64,000 nucleotides of DNA from a virus: positions 6,028 to 70,027 of the IMG/VR virus record IMGVR_UViG_3300018013_000001, one strand, 5' to 3'. A program made the translations under genes and the position numbers. The first letter of the stretch is position 1. The number at the start of each line of letters is the position of its first letter. Shown here one piece after another: positions 5,591-30,520 of this stretch. Below the pieces are notes generated by a model. That model worked only from the letters and a program-made list of their open reading frames with translations. It was not told where the DNA came from and ran no database searches.

Positions 5591-6232
5591 GTGAGTCGTC
5601 CCCCGAATGGTTATTGGAAGAACAATCTTCGCATCGTCAGCGTCACCGAGGCGCTGAGCGCGTCCAGGGTCAGGCGGTGGGCTGGCAAGCCCTCTGCCTG
5701 GGCTCGGCGCGCAGAGATCGGGAGCGCGGTGCACAAGGCAACGGCCATCCTTGACGTGAACGGCTTGACCTGGGACGCGGCGTCGCGCGAGTGGGTCGAG
5801 CCCTACGACGCCGTGAGCCGCGAAGTCCGGGGCTTCTGCCTGTCCTGGGAGAAGCTGAAGCGCGAATGCGATTTCGTGCCCGTCCTGATCGAGCATACCT
5901 TGTTCGCCAAGTCCGGCATAACCGACTTCGCCACGACGCTCGACCGCGTCGGCTTGCTGGCTGGTGCTCAAGCGATCATCGAACTGAAAACCCCGAAGGT
6001 GGTTGAGCCATACTGGGGGCCGCAGCTCGCGGGCCAGGAAGAGGCGCTCATGCAGACCTTCGGGCCACCGACCGACCGGCCTTTCAAGTACACGCGCTGG
6101 GCGGCGCAGCTTTTCTCGAGCGGGAAGTGCGGACGGCTCGTCCCGTTCACGGACCCGAACGACCGCAACGTGTTTCTATGGTCGCTCGCAATAGCAGTCT
6201 GGACAATGAACGCTTATGGCGACACGCGCTGA
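5591..6232 (+). CDS. PD-(D/E)XK (Cas4/RecB-like) exonuclease
   Basis: SVTEAL, GSAVH, IEH, TLDRVG, IIELKT, QLAG motifs. Confidence 0.7.
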   Translation: MSRPPNGYWKNNLRIVSVTEALSASRVRRWAGKPSAWARRAEIGSAVHKATAILDVNGLTWDAASREWVEPYDAVSREVRGFCLSWEKLKRECDFVPVLIEHTLFAKSGITDFATTLDRVGLLAGAQAIIELKTPKVVEPYWGPQLAGQEEALMQTFGPPTDRPFKYTRWAAQLFSSGKCGRLVPFTDPNDRNVFLWSLAIAVWTMNAYGDTR

Positions 6233-21353: not shown

Positions 21354-22025
21354 ATGAGCGAGAGCTGTGGTAGATGCCCTCGTTTCCATGAAGGTGATCC
21401 AGGAGGCCAAGAAATGATCAAAGATGAGAGGTTTGAACAATGGTGGCGAGAATGGGTAGCTGTTCCGTACATGCAATCTAAGGATACGGCAAGAGCGGGT
21501 TGGGACGCTGCTATAGCCGAGATGCAGAAGCCCCAGGATCTCTCGACCTGCCCAGTGGGGCATTCGAGGGCGGAGCTGAGAAACATTGATATGGGCCAGC
21601 ACACTACAAAAAAAGGAGATAATCCCCCGACGCGGGCTACTTTTATGTGCTGCGGAGCTTGCCTTGACCAAGCTGAGGCCGTCACCAAGGCCGAAGCCGT
21701 GACCGTGGAGAGGTGCTCAATACTAGTGTGCGCCCTCTGTACAGAAGGCAATCCTGTTGAGTGGCAAGAGTCCAAGCAGCGTTGGATTCACCGGGATACC
21801 GGCATCACGGTAAAGTGTGGAGCATCTGAGATTCGCTCCCTCCGCCCTGACCCGGACTTCCTGAACCGCGTGCGGCTGGAGGCGAGGCTGGAAGAGGCCA
21901 AGCTGGGATTGCATTACGCCAGTTGTGATCCTAGTCAAGGGGGATGCTGGCAGGAACGGCGCATTGCCGACCTCAAGCGCCAGATCAGGGAGGAGGGGGT
22001 GCAAAGTGGCGGTAAGCCCAGGTAA
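21354..22025 (+). CDS. Hypothetical protein (modular, Cys-rich)
   Basis: 223 aa ORF in operon. Confidence 0.55.
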   Translation: MSESCGRCPRFHEGDPGGQEMIKDERFEQWWREWVAVPYMQSKDTARAGWDAAIAEMQKPQDLSTCPVGHSRAELRNIDMGQHTTKKGDNPPTRATFMCCGACLDQAEAVTKAEAVTVERCSILVCALCTEGNPVEWQESKQRWIHRDTGITVKCGASEIRSLRPDPDFLNRVRLEARLEEAKLGLHYASCDPSQGGCWQERRIADLKRQIREEGVQSGGKPR

Positions 22026-22056
22026 GCCGTACGGGAAAGAGAAAGGGTGGCGAAGC

Positions 22057-22617
22057 ATGTCGATGAGTGAAAGAGAACTTCAAATCCAAAAGTTTGAGGA
22101 AATCTGCCGTCTAACCGCAGAGCTTGCTAAGTCAAAGTTCCAGTTGGCAGCGGCGCAACGTGAGCTTGGCAAGGCTGCTTCCAATTCTGTGAGGTTTTGT
22201 ATCGAGCTTCAGCGGGCGCAGGATGAAGTGAAACGCCTCATCAAAGCCAACGAGAAGTTACATGCGAAGTGCGCGGAGATGCGACAACACCTGGTCCTTC
22301 CAGCCATCAATCGGAAAGGATTCTACTGCGTCGTGTGCAATAACGGCCAACCCCGTGACGAGGGTGAGGTCGCGTGTACCCAGGATGGAACCGAAAAGCA
22401 CTCTGCCGAGTGCATTCTTGCCGGCGACAACCCCGGCGCGGCTCTGCTGAAGGAACTAACGGCGCTCAGGCGGGTGAGGGATGCCCTGGAAAGCCTAATG
22501 TCTCTCTTAGAGTTGGAACTTACAGGCTTTCCTAAGAATGTTCCGAAGTCCACATGGGCAGCGCAATGGGATGTTGTCTGTGAGGCTTTGGCTACGTGCC
22601 CCAAGGCAAAGGAATGA
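22057..22617 (+). CDS. Hypothetical coiled-coil protein with CxxC...HxxxC
   Basis: ORF in operon. Confidence 0.55.
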   Translation: MSMSERELQIQKFEEICRLTAELAKSKFQLAAAQRELGKAASNSVRFCIELQRAQDEVKRLIKANEKLHAKCAEMRQHLVLPAINRKGFYCVVCNNGQPRDEGEVACTQDGTEKHSAECILAGDNPGAALLKELTALRRVRDALESLMSLLELELTGFPKNVPKSTWAAQWDVVCEALATCPKAKE

Positions 22618-22770
22618 CCCCCCGATAGGGTTATGGGAAAGGCTGACACGTTTTGAGCATGGACACTTCCGGAGCCTATACCCGTTTGCAAAGATTGTGC
22701 TCCGAGCTGGCAGTTCCCGATTCAGGTTCCGTTTCAGGTACGGTAGTGGCTGCTGACATAGGAGAATCTA

Positions 22771-23085
22771 ATGGCAAAACGAATTCAGCGGAAACGCACA
22801 AAGGGCTGGAGGATGCCCGAGGGCGTTGTCTACGTTGGGAGGCCGTCCAAATGGGGTAATCCTCTTCCCATGTCGAGGTATGTTGACGCCCAAACCTGCA
22901 TAGATGATTATAAAACTCTCGTGTACGTTGAAAAACCAGAATCATTTCGCGACTCAATTAGGAAAGAATTGCGCGGCAAGGATTTAGCCTGCTGGTGTAG
23001 CCTGTCAAGCCCTTGCCACGGGGACATCCTCTTGGAAATAGCGAACGGCCCGCACCAGACATTGAGGCTTTCGCTGGCGGGGTGA
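22771..23085 (+). CDS. DUF4326-family protein
   Basis: RIQRKRTKGWR, YVGRPSKWGNP, LRGKDLACWC...CHGDIL. Confidence 0.9.
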   Translation: MAKRIQRKRTKGWRMPEGVVYVGRPSKWGNPLPMSRYVDAQTCIDDYKTLVYVEKPESFRDSIRKELRGKDLACWCSLSSPCHGDILLEIANGPHQTLRLSLAG

Positions 23086-23138
23086 CGGGCCTGAGCCTGT
23101 CGCGGATATGAAGTCAAAGCCGGTTTGACTGAGGAGAT

Positions 23139-23360
23139 ATGGTGATGGTAAAGCGCCGAAAGCGTAGCCGTAACATTAAGAAGCAGGAAGCGGTTGTTTC
23201 CGCTTTGTGGAACTTTGCCGCAGACATAACAAAGCGGGGGCTGGAAGGTACACAGTGCGCAAATGTGCGTCTCGGCGTCTCCGTTTCTCTAAAGCATATT
23301 GGGACGGCTTTGGGATCAATCATGGACGTCTTCGGATATGATGTTGCGGAAGTTCAATAA
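23139..23360 (+). CDS. Hypothetical protein
   Basis: GAGGAG RBS. Confidence 0.5.
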   Translation: MVMVKRRKRSRNIKKQEAVVSALWNFAADITKRGLEGTQCANVRLGVSVSLKHIGTALGSIMDVFGYDVAEVQ

Positions 23361-23452
23361 ACGTGTGAGCAGGCTCCTCCGTCGCGCTGAGTTCTCCCTC
23401 TCCTGCGGCGGAGTCCTGCTCGCCAATGACGAAACATGAAAAGGAGAATGAA

Positions 23453-23812
23453 ATGAAAAAGGTTTGGATGATGGTTTGCATTTTGGGGATCGTGGGCAAC
23501 GTCACCTCCGGCCAACAAGGCCAGAAGGTTCCGCAAACATCTCAAGGGCCTCAGATGGTTCAGTTGAGTCCTTCAGGAAAGCTGGCATTCAGGACCGTTC
23601 AGCAGGAGCTTGCACAGCTTCAGGCAGACATCAACGAACTCGTGTCGGCAGAGGTAAAAGTACAGGGCTTGACGGGAGAAGGGTGGCAGCTTAATTTTCA
23701 GACAGGTATGTTGGTGCGGGTACCTCCCGCAACTCCACCACCAGCCAATCCTCCTGCGGCCCAGCCGGAAAAGAGCAAGGCGGCCATCGGGCAGGAAAAG
23801 CAGAAGCGGTAA
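23453..23812 (+). CDS. Hypothetical exported protein
   Basis: MKKVWMMVCILGIVG signal-like start, AGGAG RBS. Confidence 0.55.
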   Translation: MKKVWMMVCILGIVGNVTSGQQGQKVPQTSQGPQMVQLSPSGKLAFRTVQQELAQLQADINELVSAEVKVQGLTGEGWQLNFQTGMLVRVPPATPPPANPPAAQPEKSKAAIGQEKQKR

Positions 23813-23823
23813 CGGGAGTTTCG

Positions 23824-23954
23824 CCGGGCGCTCTGCCCTGTCTCTTCCTTGGCGCGGACGATCGTAAAGAGCCAAGGGTGGCGGGAGAGTAGAGGTTGTT
23901 CGTAGTGGAGCCCTGTTCCCTCCCTCGACTGAGGGGACGGGGCAGAGCGCCCGG
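23824..23954 (+). ncRNA. Candidate structured RNA / long stem-loop
   Basis: CCGGGCGCTCTGCCCTGTCTC pairs with GGGACGGGGCAGAGCGCCCGG (G-U allowed); internal CCTTGGC/GCCAAGG hairpin. Confidence 0.45.
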
Positions 23955-23956
23955 AG

Positions 23957-23974
23957 AGTCTGTTATAATGGACT
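23957..23974. promoter_or_regulatory. Copy 4 of the palindromic box (AGTCTGTTATAATGGACT), containing an extended -10 TGtTATAAT
   Basis: Upstream of the GGAGG RBS and GTG 24007. Confidence 0.6.
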
Positions 23975-24006
23975 CCTGAAAAAGCGATTGAAATCGGAGG
24001 GCCGAA

Positions 24007-24930
24007 GTGGTAAAACGCAAGGCAATGAAGCATAAGCCGATCACGCATCTCAAAGACTTGCATGCTGATCCGCGCAACGCTCGACTCCACGACAAGCGCA
24101 ACATCGGCATGATTGAGCAATCGCTTGAGCAGTATGGTGCCGCGCGATCAATCGTGATAGATGAAACCGGCCAGATTATCGCTGGGCACGGAGTTCTAGA
24201 AGGTGCCGCCAACGTGGGGATCGAAAAGGTGATTTCTGTAGAGGCTACCGGCAACGAGATCGTGGCCGTGGTACGCCGTGGCCTGACGCCGAAGCAGAAA
24301 GCGGAGTTGGCGATTGCCGATAACAGAGCATCAGATTTGAGCGAGATGGACCCTGCAATGCTGAAGTCTCTTTCCGATGAAGGGCTGGCCGATCTTGACA
24401 AGTTCTTCTTCCCGGAGGAATTGACGGCGCTCTTTGCCAATGCTCTCACGGAAGGCGACGCTGAGCACATCACGCCCGAAGAAGCGCACAAGACGCTGGC
24501 GGAGAGGTTCATTGTGCCTCCGTTCTCCGTGTTGGATGCCCGGCAGGGCTATTGGCAGGACCGCAAGCGGGCTTGGCTAGCACTGGGGATTCAGAGTGAA
24601 CTGGGACGCAGGGAAACGAACTGCCCTGGCAGCCCTGGCGATAAGCGTGGCCCGGAGTGGAAACATTTCGCAGGTGACAAACAAACAAACAAAGCCAAAC
24701 CTTCAAGGGCGGAGCACTATTCAGAGGCGGCGAATTCAGCGACCCGATTGACGCCAAGAACGCCTTCGGAAAGCGGATTGCAGAGAGAGAGAGAGAGAGA
24801 GAATATCAGCCTTCAAGAGCCAAGGGCGGCTAAACGAATTTCAGCATCGCCGGGCGGTTCACCAAGGCCAGCGGCAGACTACAGCAAAAGGCAGCGGGGT
24901 GATGGAAGGGGAAGGCCGATAGATGGGTAA
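24007..24930 (+). CDS. ParB/Srx-like N-terminal domain plus N-terminal part of a phage DNA methyltransferase
   Basis: PRNARLH...SLEQYG..RSIVID...IAGHG...ADNR, then LAERFIVPPFSVLDARQGYWQDRKRAWLALGIQSELGR. Confidence 0.8.
   Translation: MVKRKAMKHKPITHLKDLHADPRNARLHDKRNIGMIEQSLEQYGAARSIVIDETGQIIAGHGVLEGAANVGIEKVISVEATGNEIVAVVRRGLTPKQKAELAIADNRASDLSEMDPAMLKSLSDEGLADLDKFFFPEELTALFANALTEGDAEHITPEEAHKTLAERFIVPPFSVLDARQGYWQDRKRAWLALGIQSELGRRETNCPGSPGDKRGPEWKHFAGDKQTNKAKPSRAEHYSEAANSATRLTPRTPSESGLQRERERENISLQEPRAAKRISASPGGSPRPAADYSKRQRGDGRGRPIDG
24678..24693 (+). repeat. (CAAA)4 microsatellite inside CDS
   Basis: Directly read. Confidence 0.85.
24782..24801 (+). repeat. (AG)10 microsatellite inside CDS
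   Basis: Directly read. Confidence 0.95.
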
Positions 24931-25923
24931 GAACGCGCGGTGTTTCGGGCAAGATCTGATGCGGGGAGAGAATGCGAAATTTAACCTGGGTCGTAGGCAG
25001 GCAGGCAGGCAGGCAGGCAGCTTGACGATACAAGCCAGCGAATTCTGAAAGGTGGAAGAAAGGCAATGGCCCGAACTTGGTCCGCATCCCCGAACGCTTT
25101 AGCGGAAAGAATTGAACGACTGAAGCCGGGGGAAGAATATCTTGAGACAGTATATGGTGCCGATGGGCAGCCAACCGGCACGAGCATATTCGATGCCACC
25201 CTCTGTGAATTGATCTATCGCTGGTTTTGCCCTCCCAAGAGCAAAGTACTCGACCCCTTCGCTGGGGGGAGTGTGCGTGGAATAGCGGCGGGCATCTTGG
25301 GCCTTGATTACGTGGGAATCGAGCTATCAAAGGGCCAGCTTGAGGCCAACCGAAAGCAAGCAAAGGATATTCTGAGTACTGGGGCGAACGGCTGGGCGGG
25401 AAAGAAAAGCTTTGGTCGAGTGCAGTGGATTGAAGGCGACGCCCTGAAAGCAGCGGTCCTCGCGCCGGGTAGCTACGATCTCATCTTCTCCCGTCCACCT
25501 TATGGGGATTTGGAGGTTTATTCGGATGATCCGCGCGATCTCTCCACAATGCCCCACGATAAATTCCTGGAGGCATACCGCCAGGTGATCCGCGTCTCTT
25601 GCGGAATGCTGAAGCCTAATCGCTTTGCCTGCTTCGTGGTGGGAGATTATCGTGACAAGCAGGGCTTTTACCGAAACTTCGTGAGCGATACGATTGCAGC
25701 TTTTGAATCAGCCCACATGAAGCTCTATAACGAAGCTATTTTGGTGACGGCGGTGGGAAGTCTGCCCATCCGCATCGGGACGGCCTTTGGGAAGTACCGC
25801 AAGTTGGGAAAGACCCATCAAAATGTGCTGGTGTTCTATAATGGCGATGTGCGGGAAATCCCAAAGGAATTTCCTGAGATTGAAGTTGTTGAGTTGGCAT
25901 CTGCCTCGATAGAAGAATCGTAA
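24923..25923 (+). CDS. DNA amino-methyltransferase, frameshifted at the (AGGC)6 tract (catalytic ORF 25066-25923)
   Basis: ATG 24923 overlaps the upstream stop and reads MGKNARCFGQDLMRGE in frame 2. After the repeat, frame 1 reads LDDTSQRIL...GTSIFD..LCELIYRWF...VLDPFAGGSVRG...GIEL...FSRPPY..LEVYS...KTHQNVLVF. Confidence 0.75.
24995..25020 (+). repeat. (AGGC)6-AG microsatellite
   Basis: Directly read. Confidence 0.95.
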
Positions 25924-25985
25924 AGCATGGGAAGCGATTTAAATCCCGCCTTGTAAATCATCCCCATAGCTGCTATATCTGACGC

Positions 25986-26594
25986 ATGGCCCCGCGCAAG
26001 CTCGACCTGAGAACCCGCCAGCGACTAATGAAGTCGAGGATGGGGAAGGCGCCCAAGCGCCAGCCTCCCAAGGTCAAGAAACCTGTCGGCAGGCCGCCCA
26101 TGTACAGCAAAGACAAGGCGGCTCGCATCTGCATCGAGATCGCCACGACGACCCGCAGCCTGAAGGACATCTGCGACAGCAATCCTACCTTTCCAGACCC
26201 AAGGACAGTTTATAAATGGCTTTCCTTGAATGAAGAGTTCAGGCAGATGTATCAATCAGCCAAGCAGGATCAGGCTCAGATTCTGGCTGACGAGCTGATC
26301 GCGATAGCCGACACTCCCAAGCACGGGCAAGTCATAACGGCGTGGCCCGGTCAGAAGGATAGGGCCGGGAATCCCAAGCCAAAAGAGATCAAGGTTGCCG
26401 ACATGATCGAGCACCGACGCCTTCAGATCGAGACGCGGCGCTGGCTGCTCTCAAAGCTCAGGCCGAGGGAGTATGGCGACAAGATCGAGGTGACTGAGGG
26501 AAGCGACCCACTGCAAGAGCTTCTGGACGCATGGCGCGAGGAGCACGCTCAGCAGGTGAAAAAGGAACAATCCAGTGTCAAGCCAGCGACTTAA
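25986..26594 (+). CDS. terS: Terminase small subunit
   Basis: GRPPMYS...ICIEIA...SL..IC...P...TVYKWL...ADELIAIAD...RLQIETRRWLLSKL.P..YGDK. Confidence 0.9.
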   Translation: MAPRKLDLRTRQRLMKSRMGKAPKRQPPKVKKPVGRPPMYSKDKAARICIEIATTTRSLKDICDSNPTFPDPRTVYKWLSLNEEFRQMYQSAKQDQAQILADELIAIADTPKHGQVITAWPGQKDRAGNPKPKEIKVADMIEHRRLQIETRRWLLSKLRPREYGDKIEVTEGSDPLQELLDAWREEHAQQVKKEQSSVKPAT

Positions 26595-28725
26595 CTTCGG
26601 AGAGAGACTTGGAAGGTTCGCCAAAACCCCTCCCGAAGAAGACTGCAAGCTCAGCATCCTAGAAGGCTCCGTCCGGTCAGGCAAAACTTGGGCACAGCAT
26701 GCTAAGATTCTTTGGGGCTGCCGGTACAACGTCGCCGGATGGAAGGTTCTCACTGGAGTAACCAAAGACACCGTTTTCAAGAATGTGCTCAACGATCTGT
26801 TCTCTTTGATCGGTCCCCACAGGTACTCTTACAACCATCAATCCGGGCTGCTGAGAATCGACCGCTCGACATGGACGGTGATGGGAGCGAAGGACGAGGG
26901 CTCGGAGAAGTTCATCCGCGGGTTGACCGTTGGTTACGTGGTCTGCGACGAGCTCTCGCTGATGCCCTTCGAATTCCTTCAAATGCTCATCACGCGCATG
27001 TCGCCGGAGGGGGCGCGGCTCTACGGCAGCACCAACGCTGACACGCCTCTTCATCCTCTGAGGACAGAGATCCTGGACAACCAGAAGCTGACGGACGCCG
27101 GGCTGCTGTACTCGATGCATTGCACGATGGACGATAATCCGAATCTCACGGAAGAGTACAAAAAATCTCAGGAGCTTCTGTACACTGGGCTTTTCTATCA
27201 GCGCTACATCAAGGGCTTGTGGGTGATGGCCGAGGGCGTGATCTACAGAGACGCGTGGAAAGACGAGAGCACGTTCACGGACAAAGACTTGCCTGTCGGC
27301 TTGATGTGGGGCGGACAGACTCGTGAGCGCGTTATCTCGGTCGATTACGGAACGGTGAACCCGAACGTGTTTCTGGATTGGCGCGATGATGGAGTGACGG
27401 CCTGGTGCTACAATGAAAAACGTTGGGATTCCGCCAAAGAGATGAAACAGAAGACGGATTCTGAGCTTGCCGACGACTTGTACGAGTTCACGGAGCATGA
27501 CCAATCTCCTCAGATCGTGGTCGATCCCAGCGCGGCCAGCTTCAAGCAGGAGCTGACGAACCGAGGCTGGTGGGTGACGGATGCCGTGAACGACGTTCAG
27601 TCTGGCATTTCAAAAACTTCCACCGCGCTGGCCAAAGGTGTGATAAGGTTTCACCGTGACAACTGCAAGGCGACGATCGCCGAGTTCCAAACATACGCCT
27701 GGGACCCTAAGAGGGCGCTGCGCGGGATCGAGGAGCCAATTAAATCTGGCGATCATGGATGTTTTATAGCAGGAACGAAAATCATGACTCCTGATGGCGA
27801 AAGAAATATTGAAGAGTTCCGTGCCGGAGATCGTGTCCTTACTCCCCTCGGTCAGTGTAAAGTCCTTACAGTCCGAGAAATTCCCGACCAGCAGATTGTC
27901 GAGTGGCATCGCTTGCGAGGACTGCCGAATCATCCAATCGCTACGAGAAAAGGCTGGACAAGGATTGATGCCACGAGATATAATGAGCAAGTATGCGAGT
28001 GGAATCCAGAACATTCAACGGTATCATTTTCAGGCGCTATCCAGAAGCTAAAGACTGGTCTAGCCGCAATTATTTCAGGCCGAGCCAGGTTCATGGTCGT
28101 AAGAGAGTGGAGAGCCTTCACCGGGAAGTGTGGAAAAAATATCATGGTGCTATTCCAAAAGGCTATGATGTTCATCACGCGGATGATGATACCGGAAACA
28201 ATGACATCACCAATCTGGAATTGTTGCCCGGGCCTATTCATGATTCGCTTTCTGGAAAGAAAGCATCTCATGATTTCGAGCACCTTGCCAGAATACGGCC
28301 ACTGGCTAAAGCATGGCACGCATCACCAGAAGGATTGGACTGGCATCGAGATCATGGGAAAGAAGCGATGCAAAAACGCAAGGCTGTTGGATTCATCTGT
28401 CAGAACTGCGGTGCGCATTTTCTTTCGAAACAGCGCGGCGAATGCGCTAAATTCTGCTCTAACAAGTGCAAGTCGGCTGCCAGGCGTAAATCGGGCGTGG
28501 ACGATGTTCCCAAGATTTGCGCGACATGCAGCGAGACTTTCCTCGCTAATAAATATCAAAGAATCCTCAATTGTCCAAAGTGCCGTTAAAGATGCTGGCA
28601 GAGCAAGTGTCTTTGCACTGAGAACGGAGCATGGGTGCTATTATGCGAATGGCATCCTTGTTAGCAATTGTGACGCGGCCAGATATTTCTGTGCCACCAA
28701 GATTCCGGTCTGGCGGCTGATGTGA
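26575..28725 (+). CDS. terL: Terminase large subunit containing an intein
   Basis: EGSVRSGKT Walker A, VCDEL Walker B, SVDYGTVNP, VDPSA, and DHG-[intein]-CDAARY. Confidence 0.92.
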   Translation: MSSQRLNFGERLGRFAKTPPEEDCKLSILEGSVRSGKTWAQHAKILWGCRYNVAGWKVLTGVTKDTVFKNVLNDLFSLIGPHRYSYNHQSGLLRIDRSTWTVMGAKDEGSEKFIRGLTVGYVVCDELSLMPFEFLQMLITRMSPEGARLYGSTNADTPLHPLRTEILDNQKLTDAGLLYSMHCTMDDNPNLTEEYKKSQELLYTGLFYQRYIKGLWVMAEGVIYRDAWKDESTFTDKDLPVGLMWGGQTRERVISVDYGTVNPNVFLDWRDDGVTAWCYNEKRWDSAKEMKQKTDSELADDLYEFTEHDQSPQIVVDPSAASFKQELTNRGWWVTDAVNDVQSGISKTSTALAKGVIRFHRDNCKATIAEFQTYAWDPKRALRGIEEPIKSGDHGCFIAGTKIMTPDGERNIEEFRAGDRVLTPLGQCKVLTVREIPDQQIVEWHRLRGLPNHPIATRKGWTRIDATRYNEQVCEWNPEHSTVSFSGAIQKLKTGLAAIISGRARFMVVREWRAFTGKCGKNIMVLFQKAMMFITRMMIPETMTSPIWNCCPGLFMIRFLERKHLMISSTLPEYGHWLKHGTHHQKDWTGIEIMGKKRCKNARLLDSSVRTAVRIFFRNSAANALNSALTSASRLPGVNRAWTMFPRFARHAARLSSLINIKESSIVQSAVKDAGRASVFALRTEHGCYYANGILVSNCDAARYFCATKIPVWRLM
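27760..28668 (+). mobile_element. Intein (303 aa) in the TerL nuclease active-site motif
   Basis: Begins CFIAGTKIMTPDGERNIEE..GDRVLT, has block B (NHPI) and ends VFALRTEHGCYYANGILVSN followed by extein Cys. Removal restores DHG-CDA. Confidence 0.92.
27993..28589 (+). CDS. HNH homing endonuclease with C-terminal zinc fingers, nested out of frame within the intein
   Basis: LHREVWKKYHGAIPKGYDVHHADDDTGNNDITNLELL (HNH_3-like), then CQNC, CSNKC, CATC, CPKC. Confidence 0.85.
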   Translation: MRVESRTFNGIIFRRYPEAKDWSSRNYFRPSQVHGRKRVESLHREVWKKYHGAIPKGYDVHHADDDTGNNDITNLELLPGPIHDSLSGKKASHDFEHLARIRPLAKAWHASPEGLDWHRDHGKEAMQKRKAVGFICQNCGAHFLSKQRGECAKFCSNKCKSAARRKSGVDDVPKICATCSETFLANKYQRILNCPKCR

Positions 28726-28734
28726 GGCGTTGAC

Positions 28735-30267
28735 ATGCCGAAAGCCAAGAAGCACAAGAAGCAAACTCCCTCCAAGAAATCTCCAGCCATCGTTCAATCT
28801 CTTGATTCCAGGGACGGCCTGTCCGTTGGCTTCGATTACTTCCGCAACCTCGCGGCCAGGATGGGCTATGGCACGCCGTCGCTTGCCGAGGGCACAGAAT
28901 ACGAGATGGTCAGGCTGAGCAACGATTACTGGCTCATGCTGACCCTGTACCGAAACCATTGGATCTCGCGGCGCATCGTCGATCTTCCTTCTGACGACAT
29001 GACCAAGTCGTGGTGCCATCTCACTTCCCAGCTCCCCCCTGATGACATACAGAAGTTTGATCGCGTGGTAGAGCGGACGTTCACGCCGCTGAAGATCAAC
29101 CAAGCTATCAAATGGTCTAGACTGTACGGCGGTGCAGGTGCGCTGATTCTCGTCAAGGGGCATGAGAGTAAGCTGGCGGAGCCCCTGGACTTGGACGAGG
29201 TGAATCCGGGAAGTTATCTGGGCTTGATTCCCTTTGACAGGTGGAGCGGAATCTGGCCGAAGGGGAACGTTGCTCAGGACATCGAGCGTCCGCTCGAATG
29301 GGGATTGCCTGAAATGTATGAAGTTACTCCGCCGGGCGGATCGGTCACGTATGACGTTCACACGAGCCGCATCCTCAGATTCACCGGACCGGAAGTTCCG
29401 AAACCCGAGAACCAAGCGCAACTGTACTGGGGCATCTCCGTTCTTGAGATTGTGTACGAGGAACTGCGCAAGCGGGACAACGCCTCGTGGTCGATCCTGC
29501 AACTTCTTTTTCGAGCTCAGATTCTTGCTCAGCGCAACAAGGAACTAGCCCAACTTTTGTCGGGCGTAGGCATGAGCCAAAAGGCGCTCCAGATGTTCGA
29601 GGCGCGCATGAACGCTCAGAACCAGCTCCTGTCGAACCAATCCATGCTCATTCTGGGAGAGGACGGCGAACTTCAGAGCCATCAGTTCACGTTCAGTGGT
29701 CTGGCCGAAGTTTACGCTCAGTTTCAGATGGATGTGGCAGGAGCAGCGGAGATTCCGGTCACGCGGTTGTTCGGGCGCACGATCACGGGCCTCGGGCAGT
29801 CGAACGATGCCGACGAGCGCATCTACGAGGAGAAAATCGCGCACGAGCAGCAGGACAAGCTGAAGCCGCAGCTCACCAAGCTCTATCCCGTGATCTGCAT
29901 GAGCGTGCTGGGGGAAGTGCCGGACGACCTGGACTTCAAGTTTCCGTCTGTGCGCGTGTTGACCGAGGAGGACAAGTCGGAGATGACGACCAAGGCGTCA
30001 GCTCCCATCATCGCCTCATACAACGCTGGCATCACGGGTCGCAAGACGACTCTCAAGGAGCTTCGCGAGCTATCCGACAAGACGGGCGTGTTCACCAACA
30101 TCACGGACGAGCAGATCGACAAGGCAGAAGAGGAGCCGGAGCTGCCGGGAGAAGGCATGGAGGGGGAGTTTAGCCGGGTCAACCCGCAGCGCGAGGAGAG
30201 GAAGCTGGCGCAAGGAGCGATGGATTCGGAACCATCGAAGACCGACACTGTTGAGACGCGAGATTGA
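28735..30267 (+). CDS. Portal protein (DUF1073-type)
   Basis: LYRNHWISRRIVD, WSRLYGG, WGISVLE, AGAAEIPVTRLFG; follows TerL. Confidence 0.9.
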   Translation: MPKAKKHKKQTPSKKSPAIVQSLDSRDGLSVGFDYFRNLAARMGYGTPSLAEGTEYEMVRLSNDYWLMLTLYRNHWISRRIVDLPSDDMTKSWCHLTSQLPPDDIQKFDRVVERTFTPLKINQAIKWSRLYGGAGALILVKGHESKLAEPLDLDEVNPGSYLGLIPFDRWSGIWPKGNVAQDIERPLEWGLPEMYEVTPPGGSVTYDVHTSRILRFTGPEVPKPENQAQLYWGISVLEIVYEELRKRDNASWSILQLLFRAQILAQRNKELAQLLSGVGMSQKALQMFEARMNAQNQLLSNQSMLILGEDGELQSHQFTFSGLAEVYAQFQMDVAGAAEIPVTRLFGRTITGLGQSNDADERIYEEKIAHEQQDKLKPQLTKLYPVICMSVLGEVPDDLDFKFPSVRVLTEEDKSEMTTKASAPIIASYNAGITGRKTTLKELRELSDKTGVFTNITDEQIDKAEEEPELPGEGMEGEFSRVNPQREERKLAQGAMDSEPSKTDTVETRD

Positions 30268-30273
30268 ACGCAC

Positions 30274-30495
30274 ATGCCCAAGCGCCGCATGTGCCGTAAG
30301 TGCGGGAAGCACCGGGCGATCTTCTGGCTCGGGCGTCTGGGGCACAGGCGCAAGGTGGCGGCGGACAAAGACCACGACCTGTGCATAGCGTGCTGGCGCG
30401 CGGCGCTGAACAAGGAATACTCCACGGAACTTCGTGAAGCTTACCAATCGGACTCCGCACGAGATAAATTAGAATCGCTGAAACTTTACTCTTGA
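30274..30495 (+). CDS. Small zinc-finger hypothetical protein
   Basis: CRKC...HDLCIAC. Confidence 0.55.
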   Translation: MPKRRMCRKCGKHRAIFWLGRLGHRRKVAADKDHDLCIACWRAALNKEYSTELREAYQSDSARDKLESLKLYS

Positions 30496-30520
30496 CATTC
30501 CAAAGCGCTTTGGATATATT
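30492..30520 (+). promoter_or_regulatory. Sigma70 promoter with a perfect 16-bp operator in the spacer
   Basis: TTGACA, 17 nt, TATATT; palindrome TCCAAAGCGCTTTGGA at 30499-30514. Confidence 0.75.

Follow-up and report, generated by a model that had tools for sequence, protein, structure and literature searches.

A candidate repeat-based contingency locus in a two-gene ParB-like/DNA-methyltransferase module of an uncultured phage

The modA gene of Haemophilus is an example of a phasevarion, and the lic1 locus of Haemophilus influenzae is a tetranucleotide translational switch with several start codons in different frames. Among phages, the adenine methyltransferase gene bpm of Bordetella phage BPP-1 was reportedly described by Liu in 2004 as carrying a poly-G tract. 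Phasevarions are presented in two papers as mod/hsd methyltransferase genes that belong to bacterial restriction-modification systems, are phase-variable and carry simple repeats within the gene (PMC7383803, PMC7394358). A further study describes contingency loci of phages, namely homopolymers in T2 agt and T4 rIIA that yield frameshifted subpopulations and are proposed as bet-hedging against host defence, and cites poly-G tracts in receptor-binding genes of Fletchervirus (Gomez, Barrick and Waters, bioRxiv 10.1101/2025.10.21.683753). Fusions of a ParB fold to an N6_N4 methyltransferase are reported to be enriched in phages, with function unknown (bioRxiv 10.1101/2025.10.10.680097). Here we analysed positions 24007 to 25923 of a 64,000-nucleotide stretch of viral DNA (the window; bases 6028-70027 of the 70,027-base IMG/VR record IMGVR_UViG_3300018013_000001), which hold a ParB-like gene and a DNA-methyltransferase gene with three different simple sequence repeats (SSRs) between their conserved domains.

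We consider that this region is probably a contingency-type locus, that is, a two-gene ParB-like/DNA-methyltransferase module whose inter-domain region is punctuated by three slippage-prone repeats. The present combination of repeat lengths (phasotype) appears to be fixed in the window population as an OFF setting, and the methyltransferase may be drifting towards inactivity. Repeats were located with Tandem Repeats Finder and a scan of our own, with thresholds of at least 8 units for mononucleotide, 5 for dinucleotide, 4 for trinucleotide and 3 for tetra- to heptanucleotide tracts. Both scans placed (CAAA)4 at 24678, (AG)10 at 24782 and (AGGC)6 at 24995 (SSR1, SSR2 and SSR3), as a first-pass annotation made from the letters alone had claimed, and all three lie inside 342 bases. 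Its statement that no comparable tracts were seen elsewhere in the window also held: four tracts reached the thresholds in 64 kb, the same four in the whole genome, and the fourth is (ACCG)3 at 6067; homopolymers of more than 7 bases are absent from the genome. When the genome was shuffled 200 times with its dinucleotides preserved, tracts numbered 6.07 on average and the longest measured 18 nucleotides, compared with 20 and 24 nucleotides for the two long real tracts. Because these two exceed the shuffle maximum and three tracts cluster within 342 bases, the arrangement is not chance. The repeat units, of 4, 2 and 4 bases, are none of them divisible by 3 and lie inside open reading frames (ORFs) 1 and 2, as in a contingency locus. 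The features of the locus are as follows.

24007-24930, plus strand: ORF1, 307 amino acids (aa), a ParB-like domain, a variable linker and a conserved tail ...SPGGSPRPAADYSKRQRGDGRGRPIDG (PHROG matches, homolog tails)
24007-24609, plus strand: ParB-like domain up to the conserved ...PPFSVLDARQGYWQDRKRAWLALGIQSELGR block (invariant alignment columns, PHROG matches)
24677-24692, plus strand: SSR1, (ACAA)4, the same tract as (CAAA)4 from 24678 (repeat scans)
24694-24781, plus strand: cassette A, whose conserved reading is window frame 3, SQTFKGGALFRGGEFSDPIDAKNAFGKRIAE (three-frame translation, relatives)
24782-24801, plus strand: SSR2, (AG)10 (repeat scans, sister-lineage comparison)
24803-24930, plus strand: cassette B, frame 1, ..LQEPRAAKRISASPGGSPRPAADYSKRQRGDGRGRPIDG, then stop (codon changes against sister-lineage locus L002, distant homologs)
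24920-24930, plus strand: stop/start junction TAGATGGGTAA, with frame-2 TAG 24920-22, ORF2 ATG 24923-25 and frame-1 TAA 24928-30
24923-25048, plus strand: ORF2, 41 aa, MGKNARCFGQDLMRGENAKFNLG(RQAG)n... then stop; the start of the methyltransferase gene, frameshifted at SSR3
24944-24970, plus strand: FGQDLMRGE motif, family-wide hallmark of the N-terminus of gene 2 (homolog alignments, locus surveys)
24972-24994, plus strand: putative second ATG, frame 3, MRNLTWVVG..., directly 5' of SSR3 (frame arithmetic)
24995-25018, plus strand: SSR3, (AGGC)6 (repeat scans, three-frame translation)
25021-25065, plus strand: frame-1 remnant LDDTSQRILKGGRKA, the second half of an LTWVxGxR....LDDTSxKIL cassette (three-frame translation, relatives)
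25066-25923, plus strand: methyltransferase ORF, 285 aa, PF01555, in which motif I DPFAGGSVRG precedes motif IV SRPPY
25492-25494, plus strand: motif IV codon CGT (Arg); C25492T gives Cys, the family state, and the site is polymorphic in the population

Tract lengths were compared in Logan contigs of four public runs (X3, X15, X17 and X19, of which X3 is a possible source sample). They were identical for SSR1 in 4/4 runs, for SSR2 in 3/4 (the fourth not bridging) and for SSR3 in 4/4; contigs of X15, X17 and X3 span all three repeats free of gaps, and those of X19 span SSR1 and SSR3. The X19 contigs end at 24761 and restart at 24811 around (AG)10, which may reflect heterogeneity or low depth and was not used as evidence. 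The assembly error that the first-pass annotation had named as a possible refutation was thus not borne out, since tract lengths agree in contigs of independent runs.

ORF1 residues 12-191 matched positions 37-205 of phrog_498 (E = 2e-31) as well as the ParB-like phrogs 15396 and 620, and the protein matched neither Pfam ParBc (PF02195) nor any other Pfam family even at E <= 10; the label 'ParB-like' is therefore taken from the PHROG families and from the names of annotated relatives, not from Pfam. A search with ORF1 returned 2,838 relatives, many of them 240-360 residues long and ending, like ORF1, in ...SPGGSPRPA..(D)Y....RGDGRGRPI and a stop. ORF1 is open for 307 codons and traverses SSR1 and SSR2 in frame 1. 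With SSR1 at its present 4 units, ORF1 enters cassette A in the wrong frame (frame 1) and reads unrelated residues free of stops; three-frame translation indicated that 5 units would bring it into the conserved frame of cassette A and that 3 units would lead to a frame-2 TGA stop. The conserved frame was confirmed by relative P0005, which has QTNKQSQVFNGEALRRGGEAADP in one frame, and the cassette ..SPLERK.. is present in P0005, P0003 and P0009. With SSR1 and SSR2 at 5 + 11 (or 8) units, cassettes A and B are both read in their conserved frames; at the present 4 + 10 the reading is net in frame, with cassette A mistranslated and cassette B kept. The out-of-phase entry at SSR1 and exit at SSR2 cancel, so that the conserved tail is retained, and the present 4/10 state implies compensating slips at both tracts. 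A 184-aa variant in the ORF1 cluster, P0249, loses the frame inside PPFSVLDARQGYW, outside any repeat; it reflects an error in sequencing or else a copy that is broken.

The methyltransferase ORF scored 40.8 bits against PF01555 (gathering cut-off 26.7), and its residues 35-276 matched positions 355-613 of phrog_498 (E = 7e-73). A search with this ORF returned mostly stand-alone proteins of 250-330 residues, many of which start with MGKNARxFGQDLMRGE or a close variant, and FGQDLMRGE is among the most conserved stretches of the family. In the window this start is found on ORF2, which begins with the conserved MGKNARCFGQDLMRGE peptide, overlaps the ORF1 stop, leaves the frame at (AGGC)6 and is closed after 41 codons. 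The intact homolog P0195 has ARCFGQDLMRGEH, W.SPNSLAERISRLKPSEE and GTSIFD all in one frame (with W.SPN.LAERI.RLKP between the motif and GTSIFD), from which it follows that ORF2 and the methyltransferase ORF of the window are one gene interrupted at (AGGC)6. ATG 24923 is in frame with the methyltransferase at 4 or 7 SSR3 units, and by frame arithmetic ATG 24972 would be in frame at 5 or 8. At the present 6 units neither ATG is joined to it, and frame 1 is closed by TAG 24994-96, formed by a T and the first AG of the repeat and thus overlapping the first SSR3 unit. Translation from ATG 24972 gives NLTWV.G, which in relatives makes up the first half of a cassette. Whichever of the three frames is read, a tetranucleotide repeat encodes the same tetrapeptide. 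The frame claims of the first-pass annotation were reproduced throughout, including frame 3 after (CAAA)4 as SQTFKGGALFRGGEFSDPIDAKNAFGKRIAE, the stop in frame 2, the TAG, ATG and TAA that touch or overlap, and the frame-3 stop at 24831-33; so were the repeat numbers that it gave for restoring each frame, with ORF2 joining the methyltransferase at 4 or 7 AGGC units.

We then compared the locus with its nearest relative, the sister lineage L001/L002, whose methyltransferase match is 84% identical at the amino-acid level. A block of 161 bases, 87% identical and running from cassette B to the FGQDLMRGE motif, is common to the window and L001/L002, and the DNA outside it could not be aligned. SSR2 lies at the 5' edge of this block; the sister lineage has (AGAAC)3 at that edge in place of (AG)10, and (GAAC)4 about 20 bases beyond the 3' edge in place of (AGGC)6, and the junction TAGATGGGTAA is identical. 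Between the window and L002, codon changes in cassette B were 10 synonymous to 2 non-synonymous in the conserved frame and 3/10 and 0/12 in the other two; similarly, the first 15 codons of ORF2 showed 3 synonymous and 1 non-synonymous changes in frame 2. Cassette B is conserved in distant homologs too. Its frame is disconnected from ParB in L002 and in the (AGAAC)2 allele of that lineage, so that purifying selection acting on a disconnected frame implies present or past use of it, by way of switching, recoding or a break that is very recent. These homolog alignments and codon changes agree with the earlier suggestion that the repeats divide the locus into peptide cassettes conserved in particular frames.

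Repeat-length alleles, which the first-pass annotation had proposed to count, were found in the sister lineage. L268 has (GAAC)2 and L002 (GAAC)4, with 99.45% identity over 2,001 bases and 8 gap positions attributed to the tract, and P0264 reads as (AGAAC)2 compared with (AGAAC)3 in P0002. Furthermore, the nearly identical contigs L017 and L021 carry G10 + G10 and G9 + G9, respectively, and each is out of frame at a different tract. Length differences between near-identical genomes were thus present in L017/L021, L002/L268 and P0002/P0264; for the window phage, the protein clusters and the contigs of the four runs showed none. Among 11 repeat-free clusters with several distinct contigs, linker lengths were equal or differed by multiples of 3.

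The recurrence of tracts at these junctions was investigated in two surveys. The viral survey covered 206 loci, of which 151 sequences (a figure that includes the window and L090, the locus from its own genome) carried both the SELGR and the TSIFD anchors and formed 115 clusters; enrichment, class and hot-spot counts refer to the 114 clusters left when the window is excluded. Viral linkers held 70 tracts in 45,240 nucleotides and the flanks 102 in 752,385 (1.55 vs 0.136 per kb, about 11-fold; Poisson P = 3e-48). A second survey of bacterial genome and metagenome-assembled genome (MAG) contigs (60 loci, 48 with both anchors) replicated the enrichment, with 13 tracts in 19,328 nucleotides of linker and 39 in 294,540 nucleotides of flank (P = 3e-6). 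The motif was in frame with the methyltransferase in 57/115 viral clusters and 35/48 bacterial/MAG loci, and many prophages of Rhodobacterales and Hyphomicrobiales carry intact, repeat-free two-gene modules. By these loci and the homologs above, the module is a widespread two-gene one, with two genes as the norm, and not one broken gene. The earlier assumption that SELGR and GTSIFD belong to one protein was thus correct for the fused subfamily, whereas in the subfamily of the window two genes are the rule.

Non-triplet tracts were unevenly distributed among the classes of cluster, as listed below.

Fused: 28 clusters, 0 with a non-triplet tract (5,940 nucleotides of linker)
Split, motif in frame with the methyltransferase: 57 clusters, 16 with a non-triplet tract
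Split, motif out of frame (window excluded): 21 clusters, 17 with a non-triplet tract
Split, no motif: 8 clusters, 3 with a non-triplet tract

The difference between out-of-frame (17/21) and in-frame (16/57) clusters was significant (Fisher P = 5e-5). Two hot spots were found. At the first, a non-triplet tract lies 27-100 nucleotides past the motif start in 22/83 motif-bearing clusters, with gene 2 out of frame in 12 and in frame in 10; 18 of these clusters have poly-G after GEHVV or nearby, and the other 4 have (GAAC), (ACCG), (GCAG) and poly-G plus poly-A. Units at the site equivalent to SSR3 include (ACCG)6 in L118 and (GCAG)5 in L158, beside the (GAAC)4 of L002 and (GAAC)2 of L268. At the second hot spot, a tract lies at most 30 nucleotides after SELGR in 11/114 clusters. 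On a FastTree tree of 111 methyltransferase domains, tract presence required no fewer than 20 changes, of which supported branches force at least 9; shuffled labels needed 31.3 on average, and 0/500 shuffles were as low as observed. The tract trait is clustered on the tree, yet has arisen or been lost many times. Both surveys and the sister lineage thus bear out the prediction of homologous loci with SSRs of different units at the same junctions, and since the tracts recur at these junctions across the family, they appear to have evolved as contingency tracts or at least to have been retained repeatedly. Taken over the whole family, the comparative support is strong.

In-frame repeat peptides were also seen in the relatives P0131, P0128 and P0187, namely the 9-residue unit ATGTGTENV three times over, GKQASKQASK at the SSR3 site, possibly from a (GCAA)n tract to judge from the protein, and ARERERERERD. 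L007, L008 and L009 have a large insert between methyltransferase motifs I and IV (about 280 residues in L007/L008); the annotation of P0127 combines a pyridoxal phosphate (PLP)-enzyme domain (PF00291) with PF01555, and L009 apparently has an intein-like insertion at CPPY too.

Several observations weigh against a contingency locus, and we gather them here together with the alternative explanations that they favour. Switching in the window phage itself, which the first-pass annotation had proposed, was not found: no length variant was present in the ORF1 protein cluster, in ORF2 or in the contigs of the four runs. All nine non-fragment members of the ORF1 cluster (301 or 307 aa; about 40 contig records) end in one and the same tail, 21 contigs carry an identical 41-aa ORF2, the methyltransferase has 285 aa on 11 plus 12 and more contigs, and no longer, in-frame methyltransferase was found among near-identical proteins. 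The three non-source runs show the same 4/10/6 allele wherever a repeat is bridged. Contigs hide minor alleles, so that these counts exclude only frequent, consensus-level switching; a metagenome scan for other (AGGC)n alleles of the window phage gave none, a result that is not evidence of absence since near-identical records may escape the scan. The SSR3-type alleles of the window (6), L002 (4) and L268 (2) are all out of frame with the MGKNAR start. Tracts of 4, 10 and 6 units are short compared with classical phase-variable tracts, and switching rates may be low. Any adaptive benefit is, across the whole family, hypothetical.

The strongest alternative, possible but not probable in our estimate, is tolerated decay, in which a weakly constrained linker or a dispensable module accumulates neutral repeats and frameshifts and the methyltransferase gene is becoming a pseudogene with no switch. 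The single phasotype in all assemblies fits this explanation, and so does motif IV, in general (D/N/S)PPY, which is SRPPY in the window and CPPY in 119/120 homologs, a Cys-to-Arg change confined to the window variant. Position 25492 is C (Arg) in the window and X3 and T (Cys) in X15, X17 and X19; the Cys form occurs on 12 contigs and the Arg form on 11, and the contigs with CPPY are siblings from the same phage. This is the only difference within the ParB-methyltransferase genes in the four runs, three others lying at 23961-23987, 5' of ORF1. As the catalytic-motif Cys is replaced by Arg, the enzyme of the window may lack activity. Further variants in the cluster at conserved positions (F42V, D148Y and a 5-residue deletion beside GTSIFD) and one frameshifted ParB fragment add to these signs of relaxed constraint, which fit a dispensable or decaying module. 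One X19 contig links 23984 to 25943 through 496 unrelated bases, so that a relative lacks the whole module, which behaves as a swappable island. Orphan methyltransferases are, according to one study, the commonest gene type in phage metagenomic islands (PMC7468147). A non-triplet tract is lacking in 4/21 viral clusters with a broken gene 2, and any tract in 2/7 broken bacterial/MAG loci. Against decay stand the 10 to 2 synonymous excess in cassette B although it is disconnected in the sister consensus, an ORF1 open for 307 codons across two compensating slips, and a methyltransferase ORF open for 285 codons. Moreover, tracts occupy the same two junctions in many lineages rather than spreading across the linker, the 5,940 nucleotides of fused linker lack a non-triplet tract, and about half of the tract-bearing genes are in frame.

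A rather doubtful alternative, named by the first-pass annotation itself as a possible refutation, is that the methyltransferase is made constitutively from ATG 25066, and ParB from ORF1, so that the repeats would alter only dispensable appendages and have no regulatory meaning. In two permuted stretches P0195 matches beta-class enzymes of solved structure, 2zie among them, and the enzyme appears from this match to be a circular permutation of that class. An AlphaFold model of P0195, built from 44 aligned sequences, had a mean predicted local distance difference test (pLDDT) score of 77.7, with a core that is confident from about residue 64; residues 1-63, motif included, are of low confidence, the fold begins at GTSIFD and FGQDLMRGE is placed nowhere. 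Because the modelled fold starts at GTSIFD, after ATG 25066, the 285-aa product would hold the whole fold and could be a complete enzyme at any repeat number. In the annotation of many database homologs only 10-40 residues precede GTSIFD, and a purine-rich GGTGG lies about 10 nucleotides 5' of ATG 25066. The strong conservation of FGQDLMRGE argues instead that the peptide matters, and many of these short annotations (starts MPLDR..., MRGEH...) begin just past poly-G or motif sites and may be frameshift products. In addition, no sigma-70-like promoter was found in 23700-26100, and in this strain the motif IV Arg speaks against the 285-aa product being under strong selection.

Recoding, in which ribosomal frameshifting or transcriptional slippage at the repeats would yield fused products from a fixed allele, seems very improbable. 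It would account for an out-of-frame allele that is fixed while its cassettes stay under selection, and homopolymer tracts such as those in relatives could support transcriptional slippage; to our knowledge, di- and tetranucleotide repeats do not act as recoding signals, and length alleles exist in relatives at the DNA level. Ribosomal frameshifting at an AAATTTA heptamer near 24977 was considered and rejected, as the heptamer is phased from frame 3 to frame 2, the wrong direction. An assembly or sequencing artefact is scarcely credible, for although repeats are generally error-prone in assemblies and the X19 contigs break around (AG)10, tract lengths are equal in contigs of independent runs and identical ORFs recur in contig records (21 to about 40 of them) of several sources.

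If the region is a contingency-type locus, as we favour, gain or loss of a unit at any tract would change which conserved cassette is read in which frame, and replication slippage at the repeats would produce rare progeny with other phasotypes. SSR1 and SSR2 would govern what the ParB tail contains or whether it is cut short, and also whether ORF1 stops beside the start of ORF2. At 4 or 7 units of SSR3 the methyltransferase would carry an N-terminal FGQDLMRGE extension, at 5 or 8 units it would start at the second ATG, 24972, and at 3, 6 or 9 units neither would occur. We regard as unlikely a more elaborate version, in which the repeats are frame dials and also joints for the exchange of cassettes between phages, giving, together with two start codons in two frames, a combinatorial epigenetic bet-hedging with the methyltransferase ParB-tethered, free or absent; the module would have evolved in this way in a large group of uncultured phages. 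It was suggested by the identical tetrapeptide in all frames, by the shared block that ends at repeats, and by the occurrence of AGGC on opposite sides of a cassette in the window and in L231, a Gemmatimonadaceae MAG contig. The L231 linker holds (AG)7, (AGGC)8 and (GAGCACG)4 at offsets 24, 113 and 351; there (AGGC)n follows the LDDTS..KILRGGR cassette, and in the window it precedes the same cassette.

Phage-borne orphan methyltransferases shield phage DNA against restriction by the host and count among the most variable genes of phages. Switching of the methyltransferase or of its coupling to ParB by tract length would, if true, give differently methylated progeny in one burst, as the first-pass annotation had proposed, and so hedge cheaply against hosts whose restriction or methylation-dependent defences differ. 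The comparative result extends the recent concept of phage contingency loci from homopolymers in coliphages to di- and tetranucleotide repeats in a widespread module of environmental phages. Furthermore, the FGQDLMRGE peptide and the SPGGSPRPA..RGDGRGR tail may be functional elements of ParB-methyltransferase systems, and we flag them as unstudied.

The locus belongs to a complete phage genome with direct terminal repeats, found in peat and wetland metagenomes. No close cultured phage was found, the best identities being 30-46% for ORF1 and at most 59% for the methyltransferase. Positions 24007-25923 lie directly 5' of the genes for a small terminase (Sf6-type, 25986-26594) and a large terminase, and contain three plus-strand ORFs, namely ORF1 (307 aa), ORF2 (41 aa) and the methyltransferase ORF (285 aa); a minus-strand ORF at 24830-25363 was set aside as spurious. 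Among the ORFs adjoining the methyltransferase in 22000-28000, no restriction gene was found. An inverted repeat (23821-23957; 27-nucleotide arms, 85% complementary, 83 nucleotides apart) lies just 5' of ORF1, and its left arm contains the region's only terminator-like match. The large terminase ORF (26575-28725) carries Hint/intein-type domains (PF13403, PF14623) in its middle and is overlapped in another frame by an ORF at 27993-28589.

Compared with the described systems, the locus resembles phasevarions in that non-triplet repeats lie in the 5' part of a methyltransferase gene, where a unit change shifts the frame of the catalytic domain, and in that different lineages have different repeat units in the same place. 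It differs in being a phage-borne orphan PF01555 enzyme beside a ParB-like gene, with no restriction partner seen and no Type I/III character, and in having three short tracts of different unit size; any switching or regulon effect would here be hypothetical. Like the contingency loci of T2 and T4, it has slippage-prone tracts in phage genes, and the poly-G tracts in many of its relatives are of the same kind. Unlike that work, which concerns homopolymers of at least 6 bases in cultured coliphages, our evidence is comparative and concerns di- and tetranucleotide repeats at cassette junctions of uncultured phages.

The BPP-1 record AY029185 (L267) has bpm at 29758-30513 with G8 at gene position 585, the only homopolymer of at least 8 in the 42.5-kb genome, and therefore offers a PF01555-type phage methyltransferase with a repeat tract, as here. 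Its enzyme is distant from that of the window (best BLASTP stretch 42 residues, E = 1e-6) and, unlike it, is stand-alone, carries motif IV ahead of motif I and has a single tract and no ParB partner. The locus resembles the phrog_498 fusions in that ORF1 matches one end of the fused profile and the methyltransferase ORF the other. True fusions make up 28/115 viral clusters, with short linkers and non-triplet repeats in 0/28, whereas the module of the window is of the split form with FGQDLMRGE at the start of gene 2, lies in three ORFs and does not encode a single polypeptide. The arrangement recalls lic1 most closely at SSR3, where ATGs 24923 and 24972 lie in two frames 5' of (AGGC)n, so that repeat number modulo 3 could give a long, a short or no form, and the sister lineage also has a second ATG just 5' of (GAAC)n; unlike lic1, the window case is built on frame arithmetic, and other tract-bearing lineages, e.g. 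L118, have no second ATG. Our literature search found no paper on repeats in ParB-methyltransferase modules. The general kind of the locus is thus known; the setting is new and the anatomy unusual, combining three different repeat units, cassette junctions and a two-gene ParB/methyltransferase module.

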